Source of the DNA: Candidatus Doudnabacteria bacterium
GTDB lineage: Bacteria; Patescibacteriota; Doudnabacteria; UBA920; VMFF01
NCBI GenBank assembly: GCA_963840645.1
Contig: CAWIZL010000002.1
Coordinates: 273,663-337,662, forward strand
Direction of reading: 5' to 3'
DNA length: 64,000 nt
This document shows positions 35,237 through 59,488 of the stretch, in pieces (the first letter of the stretch is position 1; every line of letters begins with the position of its first letter). A program made the translations under genes and the position numbers. Below the pieces are notes generated by a model. That model saw only the letters and a program-made list of their open reading frames with translations, ran no database searches and was not told the origin of the DNA.

Positions 35237-35269
35237 GCCCCGCAAAAAGTTGCGGGGCTTTCTTTTTTT
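35237..35269 (+). terminator. Rho-independent terminator
   Basis: GCCCCGCAA-AAAG-TTGCGGGGC followed by TTTCTTTTTTT. Confidence 0.8.
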
Positions 35270-35302
35270 GTCATTTCCCCGAAAAACGCGTACAATAGGC
35301 TC

Positions 35303-40956: not shown

Positions 40957-41772
40957 ATGAAAAAATCTAACCTCACGTTCGACGTTAACTCTGACATTAA
41001 AAATTTCTTGAGCCGCTACGGCTTCACGCCAAACCAGCTGCTCGGGCAAAATTTTTTGGTCGACGAAGTGGCTCTCGAAAAAATTGTTGCGGCAGCAGCC
41101 ATTAAGCCCAAAGATGAAGTCCTCGAAATTGGTCCTGGCATTGGCAACCTCACCGCGCTCCTCGCGAAGAAGACAGAGCACGTGCTCGCAGTCGAGAAAG
41201 ACGAACGCTACGCTGACATGCTGAAGCTGGAGAACGTGCGCGTTGAGTACGCAGACGTTACCCGCTTCAACTTCCAGGCAATTCTGAAGCCCGGGTACAA
41301 AGTTGTGGCGAACATTCCGTACTACATCACGGGTAAAATTATTGAGATGCTCGTGACGGCGCACGTGCGCCCGTCGCGCATCGTGCTGCTCGTGCAGAAA
41401 GAGGTCGCAGAGCGCATCGTGGCAAAGCCGGGGGCGCTCAGCATACTGGCAATCTCGGTGCAGCTCTGGTGCAGCGCAAAGATCGTTGGGGACGTGCCGA
41501 AAGAATCGTTCTACCCGCAGCCAAAAGTTGACTCTGCCATTCTGCAGCTCGACGTCCTGCCGAAAATGCGCATCGCGGTAGAGGAGAATAAGTTTTTCAG
41601 CATTGTTCGCGCAACGTTCGCAGGCAAGCGCAAGCAGCTGCGCAACACGCTCAAGTCAAACCTGAAACTGGACGAATCATCCCTTGAGAAAGTTGGCAAA
41701 GTGGTGGACCTCACCCTCCGCCCGCAAGACTTGACCTTTGAACAGTGGCTCGCCATTTACCAGAGGGTCTAG
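40957..41772 (+). CDS. rsmA: 16S rRNA (adenine1518/1519-N6)-dimethyltransferase
   Basis: LGQNFLVDE..VLEIGPGIGNLT..VVANIPYYITG. Confidence 0.92.
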   Translation: MKKSNLTFDVNSDIKNFLSRYGFTPNQLLGQNFLVDEVALEKIVAAAAIKPKDEVLEIGPGIGNLTALLAKKTEHVLAVEKDERYADMLKLENVRVEYADVTRFNFQAILKPGYKVVANIPYYITGKIIEMLVTAHVRPSRIVLLVQKEVAERIVAKPGALSILAISVQLWCSAKIVGDVPKESFYPQPKVDSAILQLDVLPKMRIAVEENKFFSIVRATFAGKRKQLRNTLKSNLKLDESSLEKVGKVVDLTLRPQDLTFEQWLAIYQRV

Positions 41773-41794
41773 GTGTGCTATAGTATTGGCACGT

Positions 41795-42439
41795 ATGGAC
41801 GCAGCAACAGCAGACAATCAAAGCAAGAGAGCATTCCACGGTGGCCATTTTTCACTGATGGCAGGTTCAGCTTTCGTGCTGCTCGTTTTGGCTATTGCGC
41901 AGGCGCCGTCGTTCTGGCACGTAGACTCCTTCCTTAAAAAGTACAGTGGCAACAACCTGTACTCGAACGCAAACACGTCGCAGCTCCCGAGCGTAGCCTA
42001 CACGCAGGCTACCCTCAGCCAGCAGCAAGACCTCGCAGCTGAAGAAACTGGGGCAAGCACGGGCGAAGCAGTGCTCGGTGCATCAACGTACGACAAGTCT
42101 GTTCCAGCTCAATTTTCAAGCTTGCAAATTGCAACGTCGCAGGACAACTCCGCCGCGGCGATTCAATCGTACGCAACCCAGGTGAACGTCGTCATTGCAG
42201 ATGAGGTTACGAAAAATTCGACCCCAGCGCAGTTCCAAAAGCTTGCGTCAGACCTCCAGGCGATTGCAGTGCCGAGCAGCATTGAAGACTACCAGCGCCT
42301 GCTCGTCGAGAGCGCTATTCTGGCGTCCACCGGTGACCCGCAAGACTTAATGGCAGAGATTACGCCGGTGATGCAGACCATTAGCGCGGCGGTGCAGGGG
42401 AGCACGAACGTTACGTTGCCGGTACTCGGCAGCAGCTAG
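41795..42439 (+). CDS. Membrane-anchored hypothetical protein (first gene of the T4SS-like operon)
   Basis: ATG at 41795 follows TGcTATAGT (41776-41784). TM helix LMAGSAFVLLVLAIAQA. The track ORF starts earlier (41738), inside rsmA. Confidence 0.5.
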   Translation: MDAATADNQSKRAFHGGHFSLMAGSAFVLLVLAIAQAPSFWHVDSFLKKYSGNNLYSNANTSQLPSVAYTQATLSQQQDLAAEETGASTGEAVLGASTYDKSVPAQFSSLQIATSQDNSAAAIQSYATQVNVVIADEVTKNSTPAQFQKLASDLQAIAVPSSIEDYQRLLVESAILASTGDPQDLMAEITPVMQTISAAVQGSTNVTLPVLGSS

Positions 42440-42486
42440 CAGCGCTCAGCGCAACGTAGCGCAAAAATAAAAAAACGAAAAGCAGC

Positions 42487-43497
42487 ATGGAACTAGATAG
42501 GCAAAAAATTTACATAATTTCTGGAGTCGTTGGACTGGTGATTGTCATGGTCATCGGGTTCTTCTACTACAACTCTGTCGTTTCAAAAAATAAACTCGCG
42601 ACAACCACTGGCACGGGTCCTTCTACCTCGGGCAGTGGAGGCCTCGGCACGCTGCCGCCCCTGCAGACAACAACGCCGCCAACTCGGCCATCGCCGCCAG
42701 TGCTCCACACAGATGCGAGCCAGCCGTACGCAACAATCTTGCCGCGCGAGAGCCAGCCAGCGCCGTCACCAACCCCAGTGGCCACCAGCACAGCCCCAGT
42801 GCAGCCAACGCCCGCGCAAGCCGTGAACTCTGCGGGCATGGATAGCTCCATGGCGTTCCAGTACAATGACCTCGCGTCTCTGACGGAAGACCAGCTCATG
42901 GCAAAGTACGACCCAAACTACCAGAGCGTTGAGCAGAACTTCACGCCACCTCCGAGCAGCGTGGATGGCATTGCCGCAAACGGCACTGACGGCGTCGTGA
43001 CCGTGCCTGCCACGCCACCGCTCACGTCTATTCCAACCGTGCCACTGCCAAACGGCGTGACCTTCACCGTGAACCAGGAGAACGATCCGCAGTCACTGCA
43101 GAACTACCTAACCACGCTGTCCAGCACTGTGGCTCCTTTTGATATTTCAAACCCAAACAACAGCAGCCTGGTGTCTTCAGCTGTCACCGATGCAATATCA
43201 AACCCTGCAAAGTACAAGGCAGACCTTGCAGCTGGGAAGAGCATGCTCACCCAGATCCAGGCGCTGCCAGTGCCGAGCGACCTAGCTGGCCTGCAGGATT
43301 CCTACTACAACCTCTACAGCCAGTACGTGACGCTCGTCGGCGATGCAGGTAGCGTATCGAGCAGCAACCAGACAACGGCAGTTGCCGCTGACTCAGCCGT
43401 GCAGCAGGATGCCGCCCAGTTTGGAAGCTCGCTCGAGACAACGCTCAATGACCTCAACGATTCCCAGACCGTTGTGCAGAATGCCGCAAGCCAATGA
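42487..43497 (+). CDS. Membrane-anchored Pro/Thr-rich hypothetical protein
   Basis: TM helix IYIISGVVGLVIVMVIGFFYY followed by a Pro-rich linker. The C-terminal domain shows motif-level resemblance to the previous ORF. Confidence 0.55.
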   Translation: MELDRQKIYIISGVVGLVIVMVIGFFYYNSVVSKNKLATTTGTGPSTSGSGGLGTLPPLQTTTPPTRPSPPVLHTDASQPYATILPRESQPAPSPTPVATSTAPVQPTPAQAVNSAGMDSSMAFQYNDLASLTEDQLMAKYDPNYQSVEQNFTPPPSSVDGIAANGTDGVVTVPATPPLTSIPTVPLPNGVTFTVNQENDPQSLQNYLTTLSSTVAPFDISNPNNSSLVSSAVTDAISNPAKYKADLAAGKSMLTQIQALPVPSDLAGLQDSYYNLYSQYVTLVGDAGSVSSSNQTTAVAADSAVQQDAAQFGSSLETTLNDLNDSQTVVQNAASQ

Positions 43498-44353
43498 AGA
43501 ACGCACATAAAAAAATTCAGGTAGCAGTTGTTGCCCTCGCGCTCCTCATTGGCGGCACGTACGCAGATACTGCGCACGCGGTGCTTGGCCTCGGTGACAT
43601 TGTGGTCGCAGACATCGCGCACGACATCACGGTTGAAATTCCAGCCATCATTGAGCAGGTCATCCTCACCGCAGTCAATGACTCGGCGAACCTTGCGCTG
43701 CAGAGCGCGCTCCAGCCGAGGAAAATTACAGACCACGTGAACTACGCCCTAAACCTCACGAACCAGATATACGTCAGCCACGCAATGGTCACGAGCAACG
43801 ATTCAAACAGCGCCCTCACGCTGGCGGCATCTCGCAGATACAGAGGTTGCCAGGCGGTGCGCCAAACTCAGGCCAGATTGCCCAGCAGCGTGCAATGACA
43901 GCGTTCAACCCTTACAGCATCAACCCGCAGATCGGCAACCCGAGCATGTCTATCGTGGACGTGTTGGCTCCTGCGTCATCGCCAAACGCAAACATTTCGT
44001 ACCAGACAGAGGCAATGTACGGCAATGCGACCACGGTGCTGGCTCTCGCGCAGCAGGGCGCGAACAAGGACGTTGCAGCTGGGGCTGGGTCTAAGTCAAC
44101 GTACAGCGCGCCCACTGGTGGCCAATCGAGCGGCGGCTTGAACGTGAACAGTGCTGCGAAAGAGGTTGATACAGCGCTCGATGGCATTGTGTCGTCCTCA
44201 TTTGGCAACCAGCAGAAGCCGCAGAACAACGTGTCCGCAATGTTCCTGGCAATTGCAGACGTGTTCATAAAGACCCTCAACCAAAAGCTGGTGGGAGCTG
44301 CTGCTGGCACGCCGATCAGCAACGGTTCAGCATCGTACTCGCCCACGCACTAG
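43494..44353 (+). CDS. Secreted hypothetical protein, split by an indel between about 43800 and 43850
   Basis: Signal peptide MKNAHKKIQVAVVALALLIGGTYADTAHA. ORFs 43494..43898 and 43847..44353 are contiguous in adjacent frames. Confidence 0.5.
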
Positions 44354-44374
44354 CGTGCTGGGTGGGCAGGCAAA

Positions 44375-44408
44375 GACCTCAGGGGCAGCAAGCTCTGAGG
44401 CCTTTTTA
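44375..44408 (+). terminator. Weak internal terminator followed by a promoter (TTGCGT-17-GATAAT, 44424-44452)
   Basis: CCTCAG (44377-44382)..CTGAGG (44395-44400) followed by CCTTTTTAT. Confidence 0.45.
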
Positions 44409-44463
44409 TACACAGCAGAGCGTTTGCGTATTGACCCTGCGTGTGCGATAATTTAAGCAAAGT

Positions 44464-45627
44464 ATGCACACTGAAGAAACAAAAAGAAGCATAAAATTTG
44501 GGGTCAAAAAATGGGCGATTTTTGCTGCGACAGTTTTTGTTTTCTCGGCTGTTGTGGTAGCAGGGTACGCGCCTGGAAGTGCGATGGCAGCAGGTACTGT
44601 TGCCGCTGGTGGCCAGTGTCCAACTGGGAATGAGTGTACATCAGGTCTTACGTGTACGCAGGGCTACTGCTTGCCACCTAGTCTCACCAAGACGTGCAAC
44701 ACAACATCTAGCACTGCAGATGGCTGCGATGATGCGGATGGCTACGTCTGTATGTCTGGAACGTGTTTCAACACTTCAACTCAAACCGTCCAACCTGTCT
44801 CGAGCACGGCAGCGACACTTGGGACGCTTGGAATTTTTGTTACGGGTGAAACTGGTAACAGCGATGCCTCTTTGGCTTTTGGTGTATCGCCAACCTACTC
44901 GATGACAGCCACTGTTGGAGGTATTGGCGCTAACTATGCTTGTACACAGGCAACTTGTGGTAACTATAAATTTGCTTGGACAGATAATGGAAAACCTATA
45001 AACGGATGTTCGAATAACTACACGTGCTCTGATACCATACAGAATCCCACGTCTACTTCAAGAGATTCTGTAATGTACGTTTTGACCGACAGTAACGGTG
45101 GTACCCACAACAGTGCAGCAATAAACTTGACGCACGATACGAATACGGGAGACAACAGCGGCCTATCTGGTGGTGGCTTGAGCTTCGGCATTGTTGTGGT
45201 CAGTGAAGATGTCACTGTTAATCCGTCACCCTTCAACTTGTCGGCAACAGTTGGCGGCGTAACGTGTAACAACGCCAACAATAATCCCTCAGCAACGCCA
45301 CCTACAAACCTCTGCGGTGTGTACGGCATGGCTTGGTCTGCGAACAACACTCCAATACCAGGCTGTTCGAATACGTGGAACTGTAATTACAGCAGCCCAG
45401 ATTTAAATGATTCTGTTACGTACACGGTAACGAGCAATGGCACTGTGATCGGCACGAGCGGTGTTTTAAAAATTACACCAAACACAACTAATGGAAGCTC
45501 AGAGCGGTGGGTCTGGTGCATTGGCACCTGCAACGGCACAGCAAATAGCGAGTGCCGGGGCGGGTACAGTAACACCATGCCAAGACTCAGGCTGAGCACT
45601 GTCCAATCGTGGATATTATTACAGTAG
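44464..45627 (+). CDS. Secreted Cys-rich protein with an internally duplicated ~110-aa domain
   Basis: TM/signal WAIFAATVFVFSAVVVAGYA, then a Cys-knot-like CPTGNECTSGLTCTQGYC. Two repeats: ..MTATVGGIGANYACTQATCGNYKFAWTDNGKPINGCSNNYTC.. and ..LSATVGGVTCNN..LCGVYGMAWSANNTPIPGCSNTWNC.. Confidence 0.6.
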   Translation: MHTEETKRSIKFGVKKWAIFAATVFVFSAVVVAGYAPGSAMAAGTVAAGGQCPTGNECTSGLTCTQGYCLPPSLTKTCNTTSSTADGCDDADGYVCMSGTCFNTSTQTVQPVSSTAATLGTLGIFVTGETGNSDASLAFGVSPTYSMTATVGGIGANYACTQATCGNYKFAWTDNGKPINGCSNNYTCSDTIQNPTSTSRDSVMYVLTDSNGGTHNSAAINLTHDTNTGDNSGLSGGGLSFGIVVVSEDVTVNPSPFNLSATVGGVTCNNANNNPSATPPTNLCGVYGMAWSANNTPIPGCSNTWNCNYSSPDLNDSVTYTVTSNGTVIGTSGVLKITPNTTNGSSERWVWCIGTCNGTANSECRGGYSNTMPRLRLSTVQSWILLQ

Positions 45628-47564
45628 TCACCAACATTGCCACGACGTTTCTCACGTGGATATTCACGGCGATAATTTTGCCGATGATGCTCATCTTGCT
45701 CACGCTCCAGCCTCACACGCTCGCGTTCTCTGCCGTGATACTACAGGGTTGGGTTGTCGTGCGAAATGTTCTGAACATTGTGTTTGTTCTCGCGCTGCTT
45801 GCTGTTGGCCTCATGACGCTCTTTCGCCTGGGCAACTTTGATCCACAGCAGTGGCTCGTCAAAATTGTGACGAATGCGATCCTGGTAAACTTCAGTCTTG
45901 TCATTGCGCAGGCAATTCTTGGCGTGGCAGACACGTTGCAGGCACAGTTTCTGCCCGCAAATTCTGATGCCCTCAAAGTTATTGGCAGCACGCTCATTGG
46001 TTTCTCAGGCAAGGTATCCTTTACGGGCGCGCTTGCCCCAACGGGTAATTTTTCGCAGGCTATAGCGGCTATTCTAGGTGTCGTTGTGTCATTCTTCGTT
46101 GTGCTCGTGATGGTGATAATTACGGCGATGCTCGCGTACAGAATTGTAATGCTCTGGATTTTGCTCTTGCTGTCGCCAGCAGCCTACGCACTGAAAGTTT
46201 TGCCCTTTGGTGGTTTAGACAAGCAGGCCGCAAGGTGGTGGAAGGAATTTTTGTGCTGGTCGTTCTTCACGCCAATCATGGCACTCGGCCTTACCTTGAC
46301 CGTTGTAATATCTCAGACAGTCCAGCAATTTTTGCAGAGCCGGGCAAACCTTGCGTTCCCAGGTTCGCCGAGTGCTGCAACCAGCGCAGCCGCTGCCCTC
46401 ACGTACAACATTTTAATTATCTGCGTCGTGCTCGGCCTCTTGTACGGCTTTGAGAAAGCTGCGAAGGGGGGTTCGTGCGGGGGAGCAGGTGTAATTGTTG
46501 ACAAGGTTTCGAGCTTTGGCCACCAGACGTTGAAGGGTAAGGGCGCGTTCACAGCTGCGAACACCGTAAGGAACAAAGCTGCGGGTGCGAGTGCTGGGCT
46601 TGGGGCGAAACTTTCATCGAGCAACAATCAGTTTTTGAAAGATCTAGGCGCGGGTTTGACAGGAACTGCCGGTGCCCTGAAGTATGATCAAAAATTGAAG
46701 GATAAGTACGTTACCAACACTCCAGGTTTGAGGCTCCTCACTAAAGAGGGTAGAGAAAAAGCGCACGCGGAGAACGAGGCAGCGTTGAAAGATATCCACG
46801 AGAAGCGCATGACAGGTGTGAACGCAACCGAGAATTATAAGAAAGTTCAGAAGACCCGTGCAGACGAGGCAATTGCAAAGTACCAAAACCAATCGGCAAA
46901 GGATATATACGAAAAGTTTTTGCCAAATGCAAAACCAGAGGAACGAGAGGTTATCATGAGGTCAATCGCAGAGACAGGTAAAATGCCACAGGTTCTCAGG
47001 CAAATACCTACTGGAACACCTGAGGCGAGAGAAGCAGCGATTAAGGCTGGATACACTTTGGATGCTAATGACAAAGTTATATTCAACGAAGAAAATGTAC
47101 GCCAGTTCATCAAGGATCAGTCCCATGGAGATGCTGATACATTTAGCAGGATGACCAAAGCTGTTAGCGGCAAAGCTAAGAAAATAAATCAGATGGTTAA
47201 CGTGGGTGTCGATAAGGATACCGAAGCAGCATCTGAAAAGGCAAAGGTAGAGCATTTTGATAGTCTATCCGACCAAGATATGATGAAGATTAATGTGGAT
47301 GGGTTGAACCTTATCATGGGGCCATATAAGCGCGAAGAAGACGATCTTAAGACAGATGCTAATGGTAAACCGTATGATCCAATAATCCCTAAGGGTAAAA
47401 AACTCAAACCAGGTGATCCTATTCCTCCCGAGTATATTCCTCGTAGCAGAAGAGGTGCAGATAGGGAACTAGTTGAGAAGTTCCGAAAGGCGTATTTTGC
47501 ACAGAGCAGAGCTGAACAAAATAAAGTTTCTTCTAAGGTCAAAGACTGGGCAGGTGTAATGTAA
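45609..47564 (+). CDS. VirB6/TrbL-like polytopic membrane protein with a ~300-aa charged C-terminal extension
   Basis: The first ~300 aa hold 6-7 TM helices (for example AIAAILGVVVSFFVVLVMVIITAMLAYRIVMLWILLLLSPAAYAL). The Lys/Glu-rich tail is lower in GC. Confidence 0.6.
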   Translation: MDIITVVTNIATTFLTWIFTAIILPMMLILLTLQPHTLAFSAVILQGWVVVRNVLNIVFVLALLAVGLMTLFRLGNFDPQQWLVKIVTNAILVNFSLVIAQAILGVADTLQAQFLPANSDALKVIGSTLIGFSGKVSFTGALAPTGNFSQAIAAILGVVVSFFVVLVMVIITAMLAYRIVMLWILLLLSPAAYALKVLPFGGLDKQAARWWKEFLCWSFFTPIMALGLTLTVVISQTVQQFLQSRANLAFPGSPSAATSAAAALTYNILIICVVLGLLYGFEKAAKGGSCGGAGVIVDKVSSFGHQTLKGKGAFTAANTVRNKAAGASAGLGAKLSSSNNQFLKDLGAGLTGTAGALKYDQKLKDKYVTNTPGLRLLTKEGREKAHAENEAALKDIHEKRMTGVNATENYKKVQKTRADEAIAKYQNQSAKDIYEKFLPNAKPEEREVIMRSIAETGKMPQVLRQIPTGTPEAREAAIKAGYTLDANDKVIFNEENVRQFIKDQSHGDADTFSRMTKAVSGKAKKINQMVNVGVDKDTEAASEKAKVEHFDSLSDQDMMKINVDGLNLIMGPYKREEDDLKTDANGKPYDPIIPKGKKLKPGDPIPPEYIPRSRRGADRELVEKFRKAYFAQSRAEQNKVSSKVKDWAGVM

Positions 47565-47568
47565 TCTC

Positions 47569-48603
47569 ATGCCAACACAAGACCTCGAACAAATTACCAC
47601 AGACATTTCCGACGCCCTCTGGAACGGCACGCTGGCTGATCGACAGGAAACTGCTGATCAGCTCATGGCGTACCTGACGAGTGCACCTGGCCAAGACCTG
47701 GCACGCTCGAATTCTGCGCAGTACGACCAGCTCATCAAGCAGTGGGTGCTGCTCAGCTTCAGCGCGTTCACCATCTTGCCGCAGGACGAGCAGCAAGACC
47801 TGCTCAAGACGCGCTTGCTCGTTGCCATTCAAGCAGGCTACAAGGCTGAAGATTTCACGCAAGCGTTCTTTGATATGTACGAGACAGATGAATTTCTGGC
47901 ACCAATGTTCACAGGTTTCGCGGCACTCCTCCAGCAGAACACAGAGACCCTCGGCGCAACGTCTTTAGACGTTGGCGGCACAAAGTACCTGCCGCAGGTT
48001 CGCTACTGGCTGCTCGACTACGCAAAGTTCCCATCGCAGTCTGCGCGCCGCAACTCTATAGACCGCCTCAACTACGTGAACACGAGTCCAAACGGACGCC
48101 AGCTCACGCAGGTGCAGCGCAACCAGCTCTTAGAAATTTTGAAGCTGAACGATGCGCTGAATTCAGTTGATCGTCCAGCAGAGCCAGCACCACGGGTGCA
48201 GCAACCTGCTCCGCAGCCCGTCCCACAACCCAAGCCGCAGTCTGCTGCGCCTCAACCACAGTCGAAACCAGTAGTGCCTACGCCACCACCAGCGCCCGTA
48301 CAACAGCCACCGCCAATGCCAAAGCCTCCAGTGCCAGCACCAGTCCCACCTCCGCGGCCACCGCAGCCTGTTCCAGTGAGTCCAGTGAGCATTCCTCAGA
48401 ACCCGCAGAAAGATTTACCGCGTGGCTTGCCAGTGTACGAGAAAGATCTGCCTCCTCCGCGACCACAGCCGCCTGTTCAAGCGCCACCTCTTGCTCCTGC
48501 GCCAGTTGCACCACCCGCACCACCAGTCCCGCTCATGCCAACCATAGACATAGACCAGAAGCTCCGCGACCTCGCCAGCAGAGCAGGAAAGGAGCCCACA
48601 TGA
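47569..48603 (+). CDS. Hypothetical protein with a long proline-rich C-terminal region
   Basis: Track ORF; ..PAPQPVPQPKPQSAAPQPQSKPVVPTPPPAPVQQPPPMPKPPVPAPVPPPRPPQPVP.. Confidence 0.55.
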   Translation: MPTQDLEQITTDISDALWNGTLADRQETADQLMAYLTSAPGQDLARSNSAQYDQLIKQWVLLSFSAFTILPQDEQQDLLKTRLLVAIQAGYKAEDFTQAFFDMYETDEFLAPMFTGFAALLQQNTETLGATSLDVGGTKYLPQVRYWLLDYAKFPSQSARRNSIDRLNYVNTSPNGRQLTQVQRNQLLEILKLNDALNSVDRPAEPAPRVQQPAPQPVPQPKPQSAAPQPQSKPVVPTPPPAPVQQPPPMPKPPVPAPVPPPRPPQPVPVSPVSIPQNPQKDLPRGLPVYEKDLPPPRPQPPVQAPPLAPAPVAPPAPPVPLMPTIDIDQKLRDLASRAGKEPT

Positions 48604-49366
48604 ACAGTGCAAACTTAGGCAAGGTGCGCAGCCTCATTGCCACAACGCAGCTTTTGAACGACCAGGAAAAAGCTGAGTGGACACAGCACTTGGCGAGCAT
48701 GAACGACCAGCAGGTTGAGAGCCTCATCGCGTTCCTCACGCCAAAGGACAAAGTTGCGCCACCACCAGCGCCATCTCCTCCACCACCAGCAGCACCAACG
48801 TCCCTCGAAAAAGTTATGGCGAGCGTTGTTGCCGCACACGCCGAGAGCCAGAGTCCAAAGGTGTCGCAACCAATCCCACAGCCAATCCCAGCGCCATCTC
48901 CAGCACCGCCGCAGCCAGTGCCGCCACCATCTCCAGCACCACAGCCAGTGCCAAAGCCCCAGCCGCTCAAGCCCCTGCAGTCTGCACCGCCACCAGCAGC
49001 ACCCACCGGAAAGATGGCGCAGCCAAAGCTTGCCGAGTACTCAGACCAGCTCGTGCACGACGGCTCATTGCACGTCTCAAGCAGCCTCAAGATTTTGCAA
49101 AGCTGTCTACGCAGGACATCCACTACACGCACCCTGAAAAAGTTTTCACAGCCGTCTACCAGCACACCGTAGAGATGGTGAAGTCGCAGCCAGGTTGGAC
49201 AATCGTGCAGAGCCTTGAGTCTAGCCCGCTGTACCAAGCGTACATCGACACAGGCCACCTCCTGCTCAACGACGCGAACGCTGACACGAGCCGCTTTGAC
49301 ATGTCAAAAGAAGAGTTTGAGGCGTTCGCGGATTTCCGCAGGAGCATGAACGCAATTGGTGGGTAG
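48600..49366 (+). CDS. Hypothetical proline-rich protein, split by an indel near 49062
   Basis: ORF 48600..49172 joins 49175..49366 through an adjacent frame: ..YSDQLVHDG / LIARLKQPQDFAKLSTQDIHYTHPEKVFTAVYQHTVEMVKSQPGW.. Confidence 0.5.
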
Positions 49367-49392
49367 GCCGCGCTATACTGTATACTTTCACT

Positions 49393-49830
49393 ATGCTCCA
49401 ATTCAACGTCCCACAGTTCATTGATGTCGAGGATAAAATTATTGGGGTGCTCACCATCAAGCAGTTTGCGTTCATTGCCGCTGGCGGCCTGCTCGACGTT
49501 GCCCTGTTCAAGCTCTCGTACCCGAACGCTGCGTTCTGGTTCGGCGTTTTCCCAATCACGGGCATTGCGGCGTTCATGGCGTTCTTCAAGTTCAATGGGC
49601 GCCCAATCTACAGCTCGCTGCACATCCTCACAGACTACGCCAGCCAGAGCAAGCTCTACGTTTTCAAGCAGAACCCACAGCACCTCGACGCGAGCATCCT
49701 GAAGCAGGCGCCACCCCAGGCAAAGGCTGCGCCAGTTGACACCAGAGAGCAGAAGGGGAGCCAGCTCAAGCAGATTGCCGCTCTGCTCGACAGCAAGAGC
49801 GCAGAAGAGAGCGACACACTAAAAATCTAG
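49393..49830 (+). CDS. PrgI-family (VirB3-like) small membrane protein
   Basis: MLQFNVPQFIDVEDKIIGVLTIKQFAFIAAGGLL.. matches the PrgI N-terminal pattern (vP.fid.EdKiiG.lt.kQf). Two TM helices. Confidence 0.6.
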   Translation: MLQFNVPQFIDVEDKIIGVLTIKQFAFIAAGGLLDVALFKLSYPNAAFWFGVFPITGIAAFMAFFKFNGRPIYSSLHILTDYASQSKLYVFKQNPQHLDASILKQAPPQAKAAPVDTREQKGSQLKQIAALLDSKSAEESDTLKI

Positions 49831-49832
49831 CA

Positions 49833-50528
49833 ATGCCAGACAAAGAGCCAAAACCAAAGTCACAGCTCCACGCGAAGAGCACCCAGTCGTTCCTCAAGGT
49901 TGCAGAGGTGCGCTCTGACACCATGATTTTGGAAGACGGCAAGTACTGCGCAATCCTCGCCGTGGCGAGCACGAACTACGCCCTCAAGAACCCAGAAGAA
50001 CAGAAGGCGCTCATCTTTGGCTACCAGAACTTTCTGAACCAGCTCGAGTTTGACATACAGATCCTCATGCAGTCGCGCAAGATGAACATTGACTCGTACC
50101 TCGAGGAGCTGCGCAAGGTGATGGAGCAGCAGACCAACGAGCTGCTGCGCGTGCAGACAGCAGAGTACATAGAGTTCATCGGCAAGCTCATCGAGAGCGC
50201 GAGCGTCATGAACAAGAGCTTCTACGTCATTGTGCCGTACTGGCCAGGTGGGGCTGCAACCGCAAAATCAGCTGGTGGGTTGCTCTCCCTTTTTTCTCGT
50301 GGCAGCGCAAAGCAGGAAATTACCGACAGGCTGAAGAACTTTGAAGCCTCAAAGGCAAAGCTCGACCAGCGCGTGGCCACTGTGGCTGGTGGCTTCAGCT
50401 CGATAGGGCTCAAGAGCGTGCAGCTCAACACGCAGGCAATCATTGAGCTCGTGTACAACTCGTACAACTTTGAGGCTGGCCCGCTCATTGACGCGAGCAA
50501 GCTGGCAGACATTAAATTGGACACCTAG
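49833..50528 (+). CDS. Stand-alone VirB4-N-terminal-domain-like protein
   Basis: FLKVAEVRSDTMILEDGKYCAILAVASTNYALKNPEEQKALIFGYQNFLNQLEFDIQILMQSRKMNIDSYL parallels the N-domain of the following VirB4-like ORF. Confidence 0.45.
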   Translation: MPDKEPKPKSQLHAKSTQSFLKVAEVRSDTMILEDGKYCAILAVASTNYALKNPEEQKALIFGYQNFLNQLEFDIQILMQSRKMNIDSYLEELRKVMEQQTNELLRVQTAEYIEFIGKLIESASVMNKSFYVIVPYWPGGAATAKSAGGLLSLFSRGSAKQEITDRLKNFEASKAKLDQRVATVAGGFSSIGLKSVQLNTQAIIELVYNSYNFEAGPLIDASKLADIKLDT

Positions 50529-50530
50529 CC

Positions 50531-52378
50531 ATGCCAACCACAGTACCGCCAACAGCTGAAGAGCTGGCTGGAGCAGCGACAAAGCACGATGACCAGGCAA
50601 CCACAAAGAAGGTCATTGAGGTCGAGGAAGAGTACCGCCGCGGCATTGTCTCGCTGCGCGACATTCTGGCGCCATCTGCGCTCAAGTTCGATGCGTCGTA
50701 CTTTACCCTCAACGGCAAGGTTGGCCGAACGTTCTTCGTGCTCGCGTACCCGCGCTTCCTTTCGGCTGACTGGCTCTCAGAGGTCATCACGCTCGAGACC
50801 CCGCTCGACATGTCAATGTTCATCTACCCAATTGACTCAGCTGATATTTTAAAGAAGCTGCGCTCAAAGGTTGGGCAGATCGGCTCGCAGATTGCCATAG
50901 ACCAAGAAAAGGGCAACGTGCGCGATCCAGTTCTGGAAACTGGGTACAAGGACGTTGAGTTCTTGCGCGACGCGCTGCAGCAGGGCACAGAGCGCTTCTT
51001 CCGGTTTGCCCTCTACTTCACCCTGTACTGCGATGACGTTGCGCAGCTCGACAAGTACTCGAGCATCTTAGAGTCAACATTGTCGGCTCGCCTCGTGGTG
51101 ACCAAGCGCGCCATTCTGCAGACGCAGGCTGGCCTGAACTCCACGTTGCCCGTTTCTTCAAACGAGCTCGACATCTCAACGAACATGAACACGTCGCCGC
51201 TCTCGACAACGTTCCCGTTCGTGTCTGCAGAGCTATCTGCGAACGAGGGCATCCTGTACGGCATCAACCGCCACAACAACTCGCTCATCATCTTCGACAG
51301 GTTCAAGATGGAGAACGCAAACTCTGTGACGTTCGCAAAGTCTGGCGCTGGCAAGTCGTACTCCGTGAAGCTGGAGGTTCTGCGCAGCATGATGATTGGC
51401 ACTGACGTGATCATCATTGACCCTGAGAACGAGTACCAGCACCTGGCAGACGCGGTAGCCGGCGCGTACCTGAACGTGTCTTTAAATTCCGAGTCGCGCG
51501 TGAACCCGTTCGACCTGCCGCTCCCAATCGAGGGCGACGACAACGCGGACATCTTAAGGAGCGCCATCATCAACGTGCTCGGCCTCATGAACCTCATGGT
51601 GGGCAAGATGAACGCCACAGAAGAGGCCATCATGGACAAGGCCCTGTGGCAGACGTACGCAAAGAAAGACATTACAGAGACGAGCGACTTCCGCAGCATT
51701 GTTGCGCCGACCATGGGCGACCTGGTGGAAATTCTCAGCGGCATGGTTGGCGGTGAATCGCTCGCCCAGCGCCTCACCAAGTACACTGACGGCACGTTCG
51801 CGGGCATCTTCAACCAGCAGTCAAACATTGTGCTCAACAACCAGCTCGTGGTGTTCTCGATTCGCGACCTGGAAGATTCGCTGCGGCCAATTGCCATGTA
51901 CGTAATCTTGAACTACGTGTGGAGCATTGTGCGCTCTACTTTGAAGCGGCGTATCCTGGTGCTCGACGAGGCGTGGATCATGATGCAGTTTGAAGACTCA
52001 GCGCGCTTCCTGTTCGGCATTGCAAAGCGCGCGCGCAAGTACTACCTGGGCGTGTCCACCATTACGCAGGACGTGAACGATTTCATGAGCAGCCCGTACG
52101 GCAAGCCTATTGTCACGAACTCTTCTATACAGCTCTTGCTCAAGCAGTCGCCAGCTGCAATTGACATCATCTCGCAGACGTTCTTCTTGACCGAAGGCGA
52201 GAAGTACCTGCTGCTCGAGAGCGACGTTGGCGAAGGAATTTTCTTTGCGGGCCTCAAGCACGCGGCCATTAAAATTTACGCGTCGTACGTTGAGGGCCAG
52301 ATTATTACCACAGACCCGAAGCAGCTTTTGGAGCTGCAGCAAGCGAAGGCGAGCGCGAGCGTAGAGGGCAGTAGTTAG
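50531..52378 (+). CDS. VirB4/TrbE/PrgJ-like type IV secretion ATPase
   Basis: VTFAKSGAGKSYSVK (Walker A), RILVLDEAWIMM (Walker B), RKYYLGVSTITQD. N-domain: GKVGRTFFVLAYPRFLSADWLSEV. Confidence 0.88.
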   Translation: MPTTVPPTAEELAGAATKHDDQATTKKVIEVEEEYRRGIVSLRDILAPSALKFDASYFTLNGKVGRTFFVLAYPRFLSADWLSEVITLETPLDMSMFIYPIDSADILKKLRSKVGQIGSQIAIDQEKGNVRDPVLETGYKDVEFLRDALQQGTERFFRFALYFTLYCDDVAQLDKYSSILESTLSARLVVTKRAILQTQAGLNSTLPVSSNELDISTNMNTSPLSTTFPFVSAELSANEGILYGINRHNNSLIIFDRFKMENANSVTFAKSGAGKSYSVKLEVLRSMMIGTDVIIIDPENEYQHLADAVAGAYLNVSLNSESRVNPFDLPLPIEGDDNADILRSAIINVLGLMNLMVGKMNATEEAIMDKALWQTYAKKDITETSDFRSIVAPTMGDLVEILSGMVGGESLAQRLTKYTDGTFAGIFNQQSNIVLNNQLVVFSIRDLEDSLRPIAMYVILNYVWSIVRSTLKRRILVLDEAWIMMQFEDSARFLFGIAKRARKYYLGVSTITQDVNDFMSSPYGKPIVTNSSIQLLLKQSPAAIDIISQTFFLTEGEKYLLLESDVGEGIFFAGLKHAAIKIYASYVEGQIITTDPKQLLELQQAKASASVEGSS

Positions 52379-52408
52379 TATGAGTATTCAGTAGACAACT
52401 ACCCACCT
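52366..52408 (+). repeat. Truncated third copy (E3) of the E1/E2 element
   Basis: CAGTAGTTAGTATGAGTATTCAGTAGACAACTAC compared with the mRNA-sense E1 AAGTAGTTAGTATGAGTATTCAATAGCCAAACTAC. It starts in the VirB4-like stop codon and ends at the next ATG. Confidence 0.6.
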
Positions 52409-53170
52409 ATGCCTGTTGCTGACATTGACGAAGAGAATGAAATTGACCTAGAGGACGTTCCAACTGACGACGCTGAGCGCGCAAGGTCTGTTGATGGCGT
52501 TGTCCCAAAGCAAGTTTTTAAAAGTGAGCGAGACATTCCCGAAGCAGCTGTTACGGCTGAGGCGGTGCCTGTCGAGGGAAACCTGTACGGCAGGCAGGCT
52601 GCGCCTGGTGCTGGCTACTACGGTGAGGGCAGAGACCTCCACCCAGGCAAGGAGGCTGCGAGACCTGTTGGCAGTGGACAAGGCGGACAAACTGGAGGTG
52701 AAAACGAAGGTGAGGTTGGTGACGAAGAGGTGGGCAGCGCGGGCTACGCGTACCAGGGTGATGATGTTGAAGGTGGTGGTGGCGTTCTGCGTGAGCAGGG
52801 CCAAGTGCAAGGACCAGATGCTTTTGCCTACGACGAGACCGGTGATCAAACTGTTGGCCAGCCTCGAGAAAGCAGGACAGTGAGCGTTGCGAAAAATATT
52901 GCAGAAGAGGCTCTCGAAGACGACGCACGTGAGGCCTTGGCAGTTGAAACTGCTGGTGCGTCTGAGCTCGCGCTCTGGATAAAGAAGCACCCAACAGCCA
53001 CGGTGGTGATTGTTTGCGCTGCGCTCCTCGTGCTGCTGTTGGCCATTGTCCTGATCATAGTCCTCCTCGGCGAGTTTGCGTGCAACAGCACTGTCAGCAG
53101 TGTGACCTCTTGGATATACGGACACATTGGGGGCACAGACTACTGCTCAATGCTGCCAAAGATCACCTGA
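52409..53170 (+). CDS. Acidic, Gly-rich protein with a C-terminal TM anchor
   Basis: Track ORF; ..ATVVIVCAALLVLLLAIVLIIVLLGEF near the C-terminus. Confidence 0.5.
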   Translation: MPVADIDEENEIDLEDVPTDDAERARSVDGVVPKQVFKSERDIPEAAVTAEAVPVEGNLYGRQAAPGAGYYGEGRDLHPGKEAARPVGSGQGGQTGGENEGEVGDEEVGSAGYAYQGDDVEGGGGVLREQGQVQGPDAFAYDETGDQTVGQPRESRTVSVAKNIAEEALEDDAREALAVETAGASELALWIKKHPTATVVIVCAALLVLLLAIVLIIVLLGEFACNSTVSSVTSWIYGHIGGTDYCSMLPKIT

Positions 53171-53267
53171 AGCTGGATAGCTCTATCCACAGCAAAGCCT
53201 TGCGCGGGCCGCAGATTTTATGCATAATGTATGCAGGTAGCTTACTCAAGTAAGAGAAATAAAAACA

Positions 53268-54435
53268 ATGAACAAAAAGGTTTACATTATCCTGGGTGGA
53301 ATTCTGCTGCTCATCATTGTGGTTGTTGTTTTTATTTTTTTCTTAAAATCTAAGGGTACGCCGAGCACCCCAAGCACCACTGTCACGACCACTGGCACCA
53401 CGCCCACTGCTACGCCGACATCTACGGCTCTGGCAACCCCGACGCCAACCCCAACGGGAACCTCTGTCCTCACAAAGTTTAGCTCAGTGCCCAGCCATTA
53501 GCCCTGCGTTCTCGTACGATAACCTATCAATGTGGTACTTCAGCCCAGATGGCCACCTGTACAAGGTGAGCCTGCAGACAGGCCTCGAGCAAGAGTACCC
53601 GCTCCCATCTAACAGCCAAACCAGCAGCGTCATTTGGCCGCTCGTCGGCAACGACTTCATCACGGTGAGCACCACGTCCGGTGGCGTGAACACGTTCAGC
53701 TACTACAGCAGCGCGAACAAGACGTTCACGCAGTACCCATCCAACGTCACGTCTGTTGATTTCTTGCCAGACGGCGTGCACGTTGCGTACGAATGGGTGA
53801 ACGCAGCCGGCAAGGGAGAGCTGCAGGTCGCCAACTCAGACCTCACGGGCTACAAGAACATTGTTGCCCTGCCAGATCCAGACGACGTCATCCAGGTTTC
53901 GCCGCTCGGCAACAAGGTGCTCGCGTACAGTGCCTCAGCGCCGACGAACGGCAAGCTCTACCTCATCACGCTCGACACTGACCAAATCTACACGTTGCCA
54001 ACTGCTGCCAGCAACCAGGCAATCTGGGCGCCGAGCGGCGAGAACTTCATTTGGAACAAGAACGTAACGTCGCCCGTTGTGGCAAGCTCGTCGCAGGACG
54101 AGTACTACGGCGACCTGACAACTGAGAAGGATACTGACCTGAAAATTCAGACCCCGGTTGCGAAAATGACTTTTGATAGCACTGGACAGAACATGTACTA
54201 CGCAGTGGCATCTACGGGCGGCGCTGGCGACACTCTCTACAAGATGAATTTACAGACGTTCATCGCTACGCCCATCTTGACCAGCGCGCAAGCTGGGACG
54301 CAGCTGAGCGCGTACGACCTGCTCATCTCGCCTAACGGCAACACAATCTACTTCAAGAACGTAGCTGATGGGGGTCCTGTACGGGGCGAGTGTTGGCAGT
54401 GCTTCTTCCACGAGCGGGAGCTAGTTAAATTCTAG
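53268..54435 (+). CDS. Membrane-anchored TolB-like beta-propeller protein, split by an indel near 53490
   Basis: TM helix VYIILGGILLLIIVVVVFIFF. Repeated PD40-like motifs SPDGHLY, LPDGVHVAY, SPLGNKVLAY, APSGENFIW and SPNGNTIYF. ORFs 53268..53501 and 53530..54435 are contiguous in adjacent frames. Confidence 0.6.
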
Positions 54436-55146
54436 CAGTGTTATAAGTGGGTAGCGGTACATTTTGTACTGCCTGCCAAAGCTTCGCGTTTCAGTTTTTT
54501 CCATTACATCTGAAATGTGCGTGAGCGTGAAGCCAGCTGCAATGCTGGCCTCAATCATTTCTGGCAGCGTGTAGAAGTACGACGTGTTGCCGCTGTGCCA
54601 CTTGAACGAGCGGTCTTTGCTGCGTGCAAGTGCTCCGTAGTCGCGCGTCTTGAGGTTTGCCTTGCGGTTGAGGATTCTCCCGATGAGTCCGCGCTTCCAC
54701 GTGCCAACTGGAAAACTGTAGTACGGGTTTGCAACTGTCACGAGTAGCGTGCCGTTTGGCTCTAAGAGCGAGTGCAGGTTTTTGAGGACAGCGGGCATGT
54801 CTGCAAAATCGTGCAGTGCCATGTTCAGCACCACTGTCGAGAAGCTCGCAGCTGCGTACGGTAGATTTTTTTCCAATAGATCTGCCACATCAAAGTGAAC
54901 GTTTGGGTACGAGGCACGGGCAGCTTCAATGAGCGAGGCTGATGCATCACAGGCAGAGACCTTGAATTTTTCTCCAGCGAGCTTCCCGGCAAACCACCCT
55001 GTGCCACAGGCTGCGTCTAAAACATTGCCGCCTTTCACGCACGGAAAAACAGCTTCCCACACCAGCCGCTGCTGGGTTTCGCCCTCTTCAGATTCCATGA
55101 AGCTTGCGTAGCTGGCTGCGTTTTTAGGTTCGCTGTACGAATTCAT
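54421..55146 (-). CDS. Class I SAM-dependent methyltransferase
   Basis: VLDAACGTGWFAGKLA (motif I)..VVLNMALHDF. Confidence 0.85.
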   Translation of the reverse strand: MNSYSEPKNAASYASFMESEEGETQQRLVWEAVFPCVKGGNVLDAACGTGWFAGKLAGEKFKVSACDASASLIEAARASYPNVHFDVADLLEKNLPYAAASFSTVVLNMALHDFADMPAVLKNLHSLLEPNGTLLVTVANPYYSFPVGTWKRGLIGRILNRKANLKTRDYGALARSKDRSFKWHSGNTSYFYTLPEMIEASIAAGFTLTHISDVMEKTETRSFGRQYKMYRYPLITLLEFN

Positions 55147-55168: not shown

Positions 55169-56548
55169 ATGGCTTTGAAGGCAACCACAAAATCTAGCGC
55201 ACCAAAGATGGTGTTCCGCTGCTCAACGTGCTCAGCTGTGTACCCGCGGTGGCAGGGCAAGTGCACGTCGTGCGGTAGCTGGGATACGTTGGTAGAAGAG
55301 CGTCAGCAGACAGCTGCGAACTTTGGCATTGGCGGCAACATTGGCACAGGAAGCCGGGGCAATAGCTCTGCAAACGTACACAAGCTCTCTGACGTTGACG
55401 ATGCCCACACAGTCCGCATCCCATCTGGCATGGCAGCGTTCGATGAAGTGCTCGGCGGCGGCATTGTGCCTGGGTCTTTAATTTTACTCGGCGGTGATCC
55501 AGGCGTTGGCAAGTCAACGCTCGCGCTCGAGATTGCCAGTATCTTAAAGGTGAAAACGCTGTACGTGACAGGCGAAGAGTCGCTCCACCAGCTCAAGATT
55601 CGCGCAACGCGCCTCGGCACTGGCGCCAATTTGTACGCGTACGCTGAGACACAGTTGAACTCAGTCCTCGATGCTGTTGCAGCGACACAGCCAGCAGTCG
55701 TTATCATAGACTCGATCCAGACAATGTACGCTGACGTTGCAACTGGCGTTGCCGGCAGCGTGTCGCAGGTGTCATTCATCACGCAGGTCATCATGCGCCT
55801 GGCAAAAGAGGCGAACATCACGTTCGTGCTCATCGGCCACGTTACCAAAGAGGGTTTCTTGGCAGGGCCAAAGACGCTCGAGCACATGGTGGACACAGTG
55901 CTGTACTTAGAGGGCGAGCGCTTCACGTCGTTTCGAATTCTGCGCGCTGTGAAGAACCGCTTTGGCACCAGCAACGAGGTTGCGATTTTTGAAATGACAG
56001 GCCGCGGCATTCATCCCGTTGCAAACCCGTCTGAAATGTTCTTGCAAGAAGGGGATCGCGAGGCACCGGGCAACGTTGTCACGGCTGTCATTGAGGGAAG
56101 CCGCGCACTGCTCTTAGAAATTCAGTCGCTCACGTCGAAGACGAGCGTCAGCTACCCAAAGCGCACTGCATCTGGTTTTGACTTCAACCGTTTGCAGCTC
56201 ATTGCCGCGATAATTTCTAAGCGGCTGAACCTGAGCCTATCGATGTACGACATCTACGTCAACGTTGTTGGCGGCATGAAGATTTCTGATCCATCAGCTG
56301 ATTTGGCTGTTGCGCTGGCAATAGTTTCGAGCGTCAAAGATCTATCACTGAAGGGAACCGTTGCCATTGGCGAGCTCGGGCTATCTGGCGAAATTCGCAC
56401 AGTGCCAAACTTGGAGAAGCGCGTTCGCGAGGCAGAGAAGCTCGGCTTCAAGAAAGTATTGGTGCCATCAGGCACAAAGGTCACGTCTACAAAAACTGAA
56501 ATTGTGAAAGCTAAAAATTTGACTGATGTGGTGAGGCTGCTGAGCTAG
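55169..56548 (+). CDS. radA: DNA repair protein RadA/Sms
   Basis: CSTCSAVYPRWQGKCTSCGSW (zinc finger), GGDPGVGKSTL (Walker A), KNRFG, and a Lon-like C-terminal domain. Confidence 0.95.
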   Translation: MALKATTKSSAPKMVFRCSTCSAVYPRWQGKCTSCGSWDTLVEERQQTAANFGIGGNIGTGSRGNSSANVHKLSDVDDAHTVRIPSGMAAFDEVLGGGIVPGSLILLGGDPGVGKSTLALEIASILKVKTLYVTGEESLHQLKIRATRLGTGANLYAYAETQLNSVLDAVAATQPAVVIIDSIQTMYADVATGVAGSVSQVSFITQVIMRLAKEANITFVLIGHVTKEGFLAGPKTLEHMVDTVLYLEGERFTSFRILRAVKNRFGTSNEVAIFEMTGRGIHPVANPSEMFLQEGDREAPGNVVTAVIEGSRALLLEIQSLTSKTSVSYPKRTASGFDFNRLQLIAAIISKRLNLSLSMYDIYVNVVGGMKISDPSADLAVALAIVSSVKDLSLKGTVAIGELGLSGEIRTVPNLEKRVREAEKLGFKKVLVPSGTKVTSTKTEIVKAKNLTDVVRLLS

Positions 56549-58671: not shown

Positions 58672-59488
58672 GTGGCTGAAGATGTGGGCTCGCTAAAAAA
58701 TATTCAAAAGGCACCTGGCTGCATCCGTGTCGCTACGTTCAACGTGCACTTTGGCAGGAACCCGACAGCTATTGCTCAGCTCTTTAAAGCCAATGAAAAC
58801 CTTGCGCAAGCTGATGTGGTGCTGCTGCAGGAAATAGAGCACCGCACCAGGGAGAAGCTGGCCCGCACCGCAAAGGTGGCTCGCGCAATGAAGTGGAACT
58901 ACGTGTACATCCCAAACAGGGGAGCTCCCCAAAGACCGCGGATCGCACGGCATTGCCGTGCTCAGCCACCTGCCAATTCAGAACGTTGAATCAATCCAGC
59001 TGCCGTTCTATCCAACGCCCCAGCCTCGTCCGCGCGTGGCCGTGGGTTTTGAGGTGAACGTCAATGGCACAGCCGTGAAGATTTTCAACGTGCACCTGAG
59101 CGGTGCACTGAACTTCGGAGAGCGCATTGAGCAGCTCGACGCAGTGGTGCAGAGCGCGGGCAGCGCGGGAAGCGGGCCAATCATACTCGGCGGCGACTTC
59201 AACACAATTCCGCTGCTCATGCTCGGCCGCACGGTGCCAGTATTTTTTTCAAACCAGAAAGAGAAAGTTTACGAGTACCTCGAGGGTGCAGGGTTTGAGA
59301 CGCGGCAGAGCCGAGAGGCGGGGCACACCTTCAGGAAGAGCATTGCGCGCTTCCAGCTCGACGGCGTGTACACCAAGAATGCGAGCGTCGTGCAGTGCGG
59401 CGTTGAGCGCAGCACAAAGATTTCAGACCACTTTCCACTGTGGGCTGACGTGCAGGTAGAGCAGGTCAACTCACAGGTAGCAGCATGA
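58672..59488 (+). CDS. Endonuclease/exonuclease/phosphatase (EEP) family protein, with an indel in the G-run near 58920
   Basis: IRVATFNVHFG..VVLLQEI.. joins ..GSHGIAVLSHLPI..ILGGDFNT..ISDHFPLWADV. Confidence 0.8.

Follow-up and report, generated by a model that had tools for sequence, protein, structure and literature searches.

A compact type IV secretion gene cluster in a Doudnabacteria-like genome, probably a chromosomally fixed system of monoderm ancestry

We analysed a stretch of 64,000 nucleotides (hereafter the window) of contig CAWIZL010000002.1 from a Candidatus Doudnabacteria bacterium, in which a run of co-directional genes at positions 41795–54435 encodes components of a type IV secretion system (T4SS). 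This cluster is real: coding proceeds on the + strand without interruption from the end of rsmA (41772) to a convergent methyltransferase gene (54421–55146, −), the gaps between genes measure −4 to 110 nt, and the GC content (0.49–0.58) is the same as that of the flanks. With the gene models corrected as explained below, the cluster and two of its neighbours read as follows, each split pair of open reading frames (ORFs) being a single ORF in a close relative (TM, transmembrane helix).

37286–38590, − strand: peptidoglycan hydrolase with LysM and CHAP domains (Pfam LysM 3e-22, CHAP 3e-17), 3 kb upstream of the cluster
40957–41772: rsmA, the upstream neighbour of the cluster (Pfam RrnaAD 1e-51)
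41795–42439, + strand: o1, first gene of the cluster, bitopic membrane protein with one N-proximal TM and a C-terminal domain of ~170 aa
42487–43497, + strand: o2, bitopic membrane protein with an N-terminal TM, a Pro/Thr-rich linker and a C-terminal domain of ~145 aa
43494–44353, + strand: f34, secreted protein with a predicted signal peptide, one gene with a frameshift near 43850 (ORFs 43494–43898 and 43847–44353)
44464–47564, + strand: probable VirB6-like channel subunit, with two frameshifts at ~45501 and ~45595 (ORFs 44464–45627 and 45609–47564)
47569–48603, + strand: f7, conserved protein without TM or signal peptide, with a domain of ~90 aa (residues ~116–205) followed by a Pro-rich tail
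48600–49366, + strand: f89, Pro-rich protein conserved at its N- and C-terminal ends, one gene with a frameshift near 49067 (ORFs 48600–49172 and 49175–49366)
49393–49830, + strand: PrgI/VirB3-like protein with two TMs (Pfam PrgI, TM prediction)
49833–50528, + strand: TrsD/TraD-like protein, a free-standing VirB4 N-terminal domain (NCBIfam)
50531–52378, + strand: VirB4 ATPase of the monoderm CD1110/MPF_FATA type, without the N-terminal domain (NCBIfam, Pfam)
52409–53170, + strand: o13, with an acidic cytoplasmic region, a C-proximal TM (residues 201–219) and a short Cys-containing tail
53268–54435, + strand: membrane-anchored TolB/PD40-like beta-propeller, with a TM anchor, a Thr/Pro linker and a frameshift at ~53490 (ORFs 53268–53501 and 53530–54435)

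A first-pass annotation made from the letters alone had described twelve packed co-directional genes, nine of them without a recognisable family. The packing stands, but not the count, since the run consists of 15 ORF fragments that make up 11 genes, with five frameshifts (one each in f34, f89 and the propeller gene, two in the VirB6 gene). The correction is based on pairs of ORFs that lie in different frames in the window and are matched by single ORFs in close relatives. Four of the nine supposedly unassignable ORFs (the signal-peptide protein, the Cys-rich protein, the second Pro-rich protein and the propeller) are mere fragments of genes, and the ORF likened to a VirB4 N-domain is of the TrsD type. 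A corrected inventory of 11 genes, including f7, the tail-anchored protein encoded after VirB4 and the anchored propeller, is now available for the Doudnabacteria version of the system; it brings with it the caution that frequent assembly indels inflate the number of 'unrecognisable ORFs'. A terminator-like hairpin at 44377–44400 separates f34 from the VirB6 gene, and because of it the 'operon' may comprise two transcription units.

The product of 50531–52378 had been called a VirB4-like ATPase, and profile searches agree: it matches NCBIfam conju_CD1110 at 340 bits, against a curated cut-off of 325 (2.4e-101, profile positions 185–728 of 752), as well as Pfam P-loop_TraG (6e-24) and AAA_10, and the Walker A (GAGKS) and Walker B (LVLDEAW) motifs are intact in the translation. 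On these matches it is a member of the monoderm CD1110 family. It has more than 8000 homologues, the top matches being 72–87% identical and, where an organism is named, all from Patescibacteria/Doudnabacteria; when one genome per species was scanned, the nearest VirB4 proteins were those of Doudnabacteria metagenome-assembled genomes (77–79%), followed by Moranbacteria (~58%), and the nearest plasmid-borne ones came from Bacillota and Actinomycetota (~35% identity). The preceding ORF was correctly described as VirB4-N-domain-like, as it matches N-terminal positions of the VirB4 models (VirB4_plasma positions 98–233, 8.8e-10; conju_CD1110 positions 12–119, 2.5e-5) and also TrsD (NF041427, 3.5e-4). 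Its orthologue in the related locus L001, whose VirB4 is 87% identical to that of the window, carries Pfam PF26593 (TraC-like), and each of its 74 homologues is encoded immediately 5' of virB4. Judged by these matches, VirB4 comes in two pieces, a TrsD-like N-domain protein and an ATPase body. The PrgI/VirB3-like assignment of 49393–49830 was likewise borne out: the window protein matches Pfam PrgI with 1.8e-5 (25.6 bits, slightly under the gathering score of 27), all 41 positional homologues match the same family (best 8.4e-13), 26 of the 41 match TcpE, and the two TMs lie at residues 16–34 and 47–65.

For the product of 45609–47564, first labelled VirB6/TrbL-like, the assignment holds at the level of the family. 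Six TMs are predicted within its first 280 residues, and among 29 family members collected with jackhmmer from related loci Pfam TrbL/VirB6 is matched by three (best 2.8e-6) and the CD3337/EF1877 mobilome membrane protein of NCBIfam by eight (best 8.5e-7); the family profile gave only chance calmodulin-like matches, on the charged tail, among the sequences of the PDB. With its helices, its position and these family-level matches, the protein is a probable VirB6. The separate 'Cys-rich protein' with a duplicated domain, upstream of it, does contain the duplication (E 3e-14, 19 Cys), but it is the N-terminal part of the same VirB6, because in a homologue (P0132) one single ORF runs from the duplicated Cys-rich domains through a Gly/Ala linker, which has a Cys pair, into the VirB6 core, and this ORF aligns to the window in frames +1 (44800–45501), +2 (45503–45589) and +3 (45600–46085). 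The complete protein would therefore be laid out as a signal peptide, a duplicated Cys-rich ectodomain (44464 to ~45500), the Gly/Ala linker with its Cys pair, a core of six TMs (45609 to ~46450) and a charged C-terminal domain of ~370 aa, the N-terminal ectodomain region measuring ~375 aa.

The translocon genes follow the order VirB6, f7, f89, PrgI/VirB3, TrsD, VirB4, and around this core are encoded four membrane proteins with a single anchor (o1, o2, o13 and the propeller) and one secreted protein (f34). The same arrangement is found in L001, where RrnaAD is followed by proteins of 226, 348, 285, 841, 267 and 682 aa, PrgI, the TraC-like protein, VirB4, proteins of 285 and 394 aa, a methyltransferase (−), RadA and RecG (−). 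Comparison of synteny across related genomes, which the first-pass annotation had proposed, showed the order rsmA–T4SS–radA–recG to be kept, in full or in its core part, by about 20 species-level genomes of Doudnabacteria; about half of the Moranbacteria loci have the core VirB6–f7–PrgI–TrsD–VirB4. In many Moranbacteria genomes, uvrD, rsmA and the LysM-CHAP gene are also located near the T4SS (loci L046, L052, L060, L063, L066, L068, L071 and L083); the surroundings formed by uvrD, rsmA and the hydrolase gene are an old conserved neighbourhood common to the two classes.

Genes for mobility were sought in the ORFs of the window, which represents 64 kb of a 407-kb contig, and in 83 related loci. 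Pfam detected no domain of a relaxase, type IV coupling protein (T4CP), integrase or replication protein in 40 ORFs of the window outside the cluster, with an IleRS-like ORF (30967–33954) left unscanned, and the recognisable flanking genes are ordinary chromosomal ones (IF3, ArgRS, RecO, UvrD, RadA, RecG, DsbD and thioredoxin-like). With tblastn, the T4CP PcfC and the relaxase PcfG of plasmid pCF10 found no match in the window or in the 83 loci (10 kb around virB4), whereas pCF10 PrgJ (VirB4) found the window and all 83 loci. No flanking direct or attachment-site-like repeats were detected at the cluster, and the only tRNAs of the window are near 62.3–63.0 kb, ~8 kb downstream. On the gene content of the window and on synteny, the cluster is a fixed chromosomal feature and not an integrative and conjugative element (ICE). 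The ICE hypothesis was also tried on repeats, tRNAs and composition, which gave it no support. The first-pass view of a housekeeping-flanked locus unlike a conjugative element thus stands as regards relaxase, T4CP and integrase in the ORFs tested; the LysM-CHAP hydrolase had been missed.

Systems of this kind are known in Patescibacteria. VirB4 was reported in 2,417 of 3,035 genomes of the phylum, most of the proteins (2,407 assemblies) forming one clade nested in MPF_FATA, with TrsD (2,272 proteins), VirB3 and VirB6 encoded near virB4, frequent ksgA, radA and recG neighbours, relaxases in only 103 genomes, and VirB2-like pilins that are frequent near virB4 without being universal (1,135 of the virB4-positive assemblies) (Quinonero-Coronel 2025, Microb Genom; PMC12102498). 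In one cultivated species, Southlakia epibionticum, epibiotic growth requires the T4SS, for which no coupling or relaxase protein can be recognised (Wang 2023, Cell; PMC10633639). The cluster of the window resembles the Patescibacteria clade and the Southlakia locus (SEML1_0006-0019) in being chromosomal and of monoderm type with VirB4, TrsD, PrgI/VirB3 and, probably, VirB6 clustered, and the clade also in having no relaxase or T4CP beside virB4 and in its ksgA/rsmA, radA and recG neighbours. It differs from the Southlakia prototype in two respects: six essential pilins are encoded there, whereas the window cluster has no pilin gene or pilin array, and the hydrolase gene lies 3 kb upstream on the opposite strand instead of downstream of virB4. 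The T4SS type, the lack of a relaxase, the monoderm ancestry and the ksgA/radA/recG neighbourhood are already published, and the locus is nothing categorically new, but the Doudnabacteria-like lineage of the window receives no individual discussion in either study (PMC12102498; PMC10633639).

Outside the phylum, the closest parallels are partial. Plasmid pGO1 (trs) represents the subclass of MPF_FATA to which TrsD is confined (PMC12102498), and, as in the window, the TrsD-type protein, a homologue of the VirB4 N-terminus, is encoded separately, alongside VirB3-like and VirB4 proteins; pGO1-type systems, however, serve conjugation from plasmids and include a relaxase, a T4CP and VirB8-like proteins, and no such component was detected in the window. 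The Prg/Pcf system of pCF10 from Enterococcus faecalis (NC_006827) shares the order VirB6 (PrgH), VirB3 (PrgI), VirB4 (PrgJ), the window VirB4 being 25% identical to PrgJ over residues 221–772 of the latter, and the CHAP domain of PrgK resembles that of the window LysM-CHAP protein. In pCF10, however, VirB4 is a single protein with the N-domain attached, PrgH (266 aa) lacks both the ectodomain and the cytoplasmic tail by which the window VirB6 is enlarged, and the adhesin PrgB, the VirB8-like PrgL, the T4CP PcfC and the relaxase PcfG have no counterpart in the window, just as pCF10 has nothing equivalent to f7 and f89. 'Extended VirB6' proteins (reviewed in FEMS, PMC12857230) similarly combine a core of at least five TMs with large hydrophilic domains, but these are central or C-proximal, and an N-terminal, signal-peptide-led, Cys-rich and variable ectodomain falls outside that description. 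The closest VirB4 from outside Patescibacteria (35% identity over 93%) is encoded on a megaplasmid, an 898-kb replicon of Pontibacillus sp. ALD_SL1 (NZ_CP062975.1, 344325–370091; locus L084), in a compact cluster with a Mbov_0395 pilin-like gene, proteins of 779, 116 and 274 aa, VirB4 and, immediately next to it, an M23 endopeptidase of 1050 aa. That replicon is typed as non-mobilizable, no relaxase is annotated within the 12-kb flanks and flagellar genes adjoin the cluster; unlike in the window, no equivalents of f7, f89 or the propeller are annotated, and a pilin-like gene and an M23 endopeptidase are present.

We consider it probable (at about 0.82) that the cluster is a chromosomally fixed T4SS of a Patescibacteria (Doudnabacteria-like) genome, belonging to a phylum-specific lineage that stems from the monoderm (MPF_FATA) conjugation machinery. 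The first-pass annotation had already proposed a minimised, chromosomal, Gram-positive-type T4SS of an ultra-small epibiont, and the CD1110-type VirB4, the conserved synteny and the Doudnabacteria relatives are in line with this, a reading that the literature had reached before. Since relaxase and coupling protein are absent and the homologous system of Southlakia is essential, the machine most likely does not conjugate and serves the epibiotic interaction. In such a machine, PrgI would be the tether that keeps the TrsD/VirB4 ATPase at the VirB6 channel of the cytoplasmic membrane, as expected from what is known of T4SS (PMC12102498; PMC12857230); the anchored proteins and the hydrolase might build and hold the passage through the cell wall, standing in for the roles of VirB8 and VirB1; the VirB6 ectodomain could touch the host cell; and proteins or other macromolecules would be moved across the epibiont–host interface, which appears more likely than conjugation.

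Several points weigh against this assignment or parts of it. Neither Pfam nor NCBIfam gave a direct match for the window VirB6, its family showed no significant similarity to pCF10 PrgH by hhalign (E 0.16, probability <4%), and an AlphaFold2 (AF2) model of its core from two sequences was unusable (predicted local distance difference test, pLDDT, 48). No VirB2-like pilin was found by Pfam or NCBIfam among the cluster proteins, and no VirB8-like protein was recognised among them; what o1, o2, o13, f34 and the propeller are proposed to do follows from position and topology only. For the family as a whole, protein export is commonly proposed as the role, beside an import of host nucleic acids (PMC11665869), and VirD4-like genes are located far from virB4 in most genomes (PMC12102498). 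The extent of the inspection relative to the contig and the number of frame changes in the cluster, both discussed below, also count on this side.

Among the alternatives, the one that survives best has the same machine running in reverse, as a T4SS for nucleic-acid uptake comparable to Helicobacter ComB or archaeal Ced that would pass the imported strands to the neighbouring recombination helicases (RadA, RecG, UvrD, RecO). Import needs neither relaxase nor T4CP, and the genes for RecO (33968–34717), UvrD (38803–40811), RadA (55169–56548) and RecG (56549–58576) are all located within ~8 kb of the cluster ends; radA and recG both follow the T4SS in 13 of 24 Doudnabacteria loci, and at least one of them does so in 22. 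A coordination was suggested from the presence of comF, recG and radA beside the T4SS in the class ABY1 (PMC12102498), and T4SS-mediated nucleotide acquisition has been raised as a candidate role (PMC11665869). This neighbourhood may nevertheless be synteny without functional meaning, as rsmA and the methyltransferase gene are equally conserved neighbours. No CedA or ComB-specific component was found with NCBIfam, and CedB is matched generically, its model scoring 34.7 bits where the cut-off is 700 (CedD, 14 bits). That competence (comEC) is dispensable in Southlakia while the T4SS is essential weighs neither for nor against import. On balance, we regard import as unlikely, though it is the alternative to be taken most seriously.

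A fixed and working T4SS must also be weighed against decay, in which the frameshifts would be true mutations and the genes pseudogenes of a non-functional system. Five frame changes within 12.6 kb speak for this, and intact core ATPase genes, as observed here, are a pattern at times seen in early decay. However, housekeeping genes of the same window are broken too: uvrD (38803–40811, +) is divided into two ORFs joined at a run of T7 near 40095 (with T8 the conserved motif [10 protein letters not shown] would be regained), a ClpB/ClpC-like gene is fragmented at 1185–3593 (−), its pieces matching AAA_2 and ClpB_D2-small, and an Exo_endo_phos gene is in two pieces at 58672–59488 (+). For this reason the five frameshifts of the cluster are most likely assembly indels rather than gene decay, which suggests an indel-prone assembly, possibly of long-read origin. 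In addition, the reading frames on either side of the cluster breaks are still open and 42–65% identical to intact relatives, and the T4SS is conserved and, in one tested relative class, essential. We thus find decay improbable, and more so than import. That the cluster is instead the transfer module of an ICE or the remnant of a plasmid, whose relaxase, T4CP and integrase would be encoded beyond the window, is very improbable: monoderm conjugative elements typically have VirB4 (CD1110), PrgI and TrsD proteins of these families and our inspection spanned only the 64 kb of the window, but about 20 species share the cluster's position between rsmA and radA/recG and two classes share its core, its composition equals that of the flanks, neither an integrase in the ORFs tested nor flanking repeats were found, the nearest tRNAs are ~8 kb away, no relaxase or T4CP was detected within 10 kb of virB4 in any of the 83 loci, and relaxases are rare in the phylum as a whole (PMC12102498).

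Within the reading as a fixed T4SS, the one mildly new point concerns the VirB6 ectodomain, which appears hypervariable between species. All Doudnabacteria homologues of VirB6 have an N-terminal extension of 164–465 aa before the TM core; the core of the window protein is 62% identical to that of L001 and 65% to that of P0132, whereas its ectodomain is unrelated to that of L001 and 42% identical to that of P0132. An exhaustive search of 1.84 billion representative proteins with the Cys-rich ORF returned five matches only. In two of the proteins retrieved (P0133 and P0135), the Cys-rich module is present 12 times in a protein of 2,155 aa and once in one of 438 aa; on inspection by eye, the latter appears to start with two pilin-like helices and to carry, at its C-terminus, the motif 'GLFQINITAW', which resembles lytic transglycosylases. 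The module may be a surface module shared by T4SS-associated proteins. It is conceivable, but in our estimate doubtful, that the Doudnabacteria VirB6 carries a host-recognition module, that is, a Sec-exported, disulfide-rich ectodomain exchanged from lineage to lineage on a channel core that all of them retain. Because the locus has no pilins or adhesins, the tip of VirB6 is a candidate determinant of host contact, and a signal-peptide-led variable VirB6 ectodomain in a pilin-less locus gives this candidate a concrete form. If the idea were true, it would be the tip of the secretion channel, and not separate adhesins or pilins, that determines the host range of the epibiont.

The remaining genes of the cluster were characterized mainly by position, topology and homologues. 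Profile and structure searches, suggested with the first-pass annotation, identified VirB4, PrgI and TrsD but left most of the other ORFs without family or fold: o1, o2, f34, the Cys-rich part, f7, f89 and o13 have no informative Pfam, NCBIfam or PADLOC match, and fold assignment used shallow alignments only (10 sequences for f7, two for the VirB6 core). Nor is there free coding space of at least 100 nt within the cluster, save for two gaps of 97–110 nt. The gene o1 starts with an ATG at 41795, 22 nt past rsmA, with a -10-like TATAGT at 41779–41784, and has orthologues at the same position in five close relatives only; o2, with its TM at residues 8–26, has five orthologues, also at the same position. 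A relation between the two was not significant by BLASTP and reached E 7.7e-4 with a probability of 25% when their profiles were compared by hhalign, which is suggestive of paralogy at most, and neither showed similarity to the VirB8-like PrgL or to PrgD of pCF10 by hhalign (probabilities <4%). The homologue of f34 in L001 is a single ORF of 285 aa that aligns to the window in frame +3 (43500–43910) and then +2 (43829–44335); members of this family are found in 13 Doudnabacteria loci, always just 5' of VirB6.

Judged by its homologues, f7 is universally conserved, and no other component so conserved lacks an annotation altogether. Its 49 homologues are always encoded between VirB6 and PrgI, in Doudnabacteria and Moranbacteria loci, and in the ~90-aa domain Trp147 is invariant and Tyr151, Asn175, Leu179 and Leu191 are near-invariant. 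A word-indexed search collected seven homologous proteins with the single sequence and five with the profile. There was no match in Pfam, NCBIfam or PADLOC and nothing below E 0.9 among PDB sequences; an AF2 model of residues 1–215 from 10 sequences (pLDDT 61) is all helical with a small hairpin, and a Foldseek search of the PDB gave nothing with E <0.3. The gene that follows it in Doudnabacteria, f89, has 21 homologues in loci of this group; the L001 protein (682 aa) follows the window in frame +3 up to 49070 and in frame +2 from 49064. ORFs that match both f7 and f89 are present in two loci (L024 and L025), which suggests a fusion of the two genes there.

Downstream of virB4, o13 can be aligned to L001 only, and there just in the last 66 aa at its C-terminus. 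All 19 Doudnabacteria loci compared nevertheless have, straight after virB4, a gene or gene pair whose product has a hydrophilic N-terminal region (acidic in several loci) and one to four predicted TMs in the middle or C-terminal part; o13 belongs to a fast-evolving family of positional orthologues. The last gene had been described as a TolB-like propeller, and the assignment was borne out at the family level (PD40, 6.4e-14, in the member from L019). It has 27 homologues, six of them in Moranbacteria loci, and the L001 protein (394 aa) aligns in frame +3 (53268–53492) followed by frame +1 (53491–54372). Upstream of the cluster, the CHAP domain of the LysM-CHAP protein is 36% identical to that of pCF10 PrgK (E 2.3e-4), and in several Moranbacteria loci (for example L060, L063, L071 and L083) a homologue of the protein is encoded directly 5' of VirB6 and on its strand, which makes the hydrolase a candidate for the role of the cell-wall hydrolase VirB1.

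Elsewhere in the window we noticed further features. A tmRNA gene at 18820–19214 (+; Rfam RF00023, 67.8 bits, E 3e-24), absent from the ARAGORN output, adjoins the IF3 gene (18005–18514, −). Three consecutive ORFs of 2102, 134 and 853 aa at 6177–15656 (+), Thr/Gly/Ala-rich and with a GC content of up to 0.69, are preceded by an ORF of 451 aa (4856–6211) and are probably one giant surface protein broken by frameshifts; the ORFs of 2102 and 853 aa have no Pfam match, that of 134 aa being unscanned. Between 3000 and 6000 the GC content dips to 0.44–0.46, against ~0.55 elsewhere, around a protein with a PaaX central (Cas2-like) domain (3818–4306, −; 2.5e-21) and unassigned ORFs. Two adjacent membrane-anchored Peptidase_C39_2 proteins (2e-11 and 4e-7) are encoded at 20755–22224 (−), adjoined by DsbD- and thioredoxin-like genes (22683–24561). 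Finally, a perfect 20-nt inverted repeat (37180–37199 and 37258–37277) lies between the convergent genes for a DUF11 surface protein (35144–37120) and the LysM-CHAP hydrolase, and is likely a bidirectional terminator.

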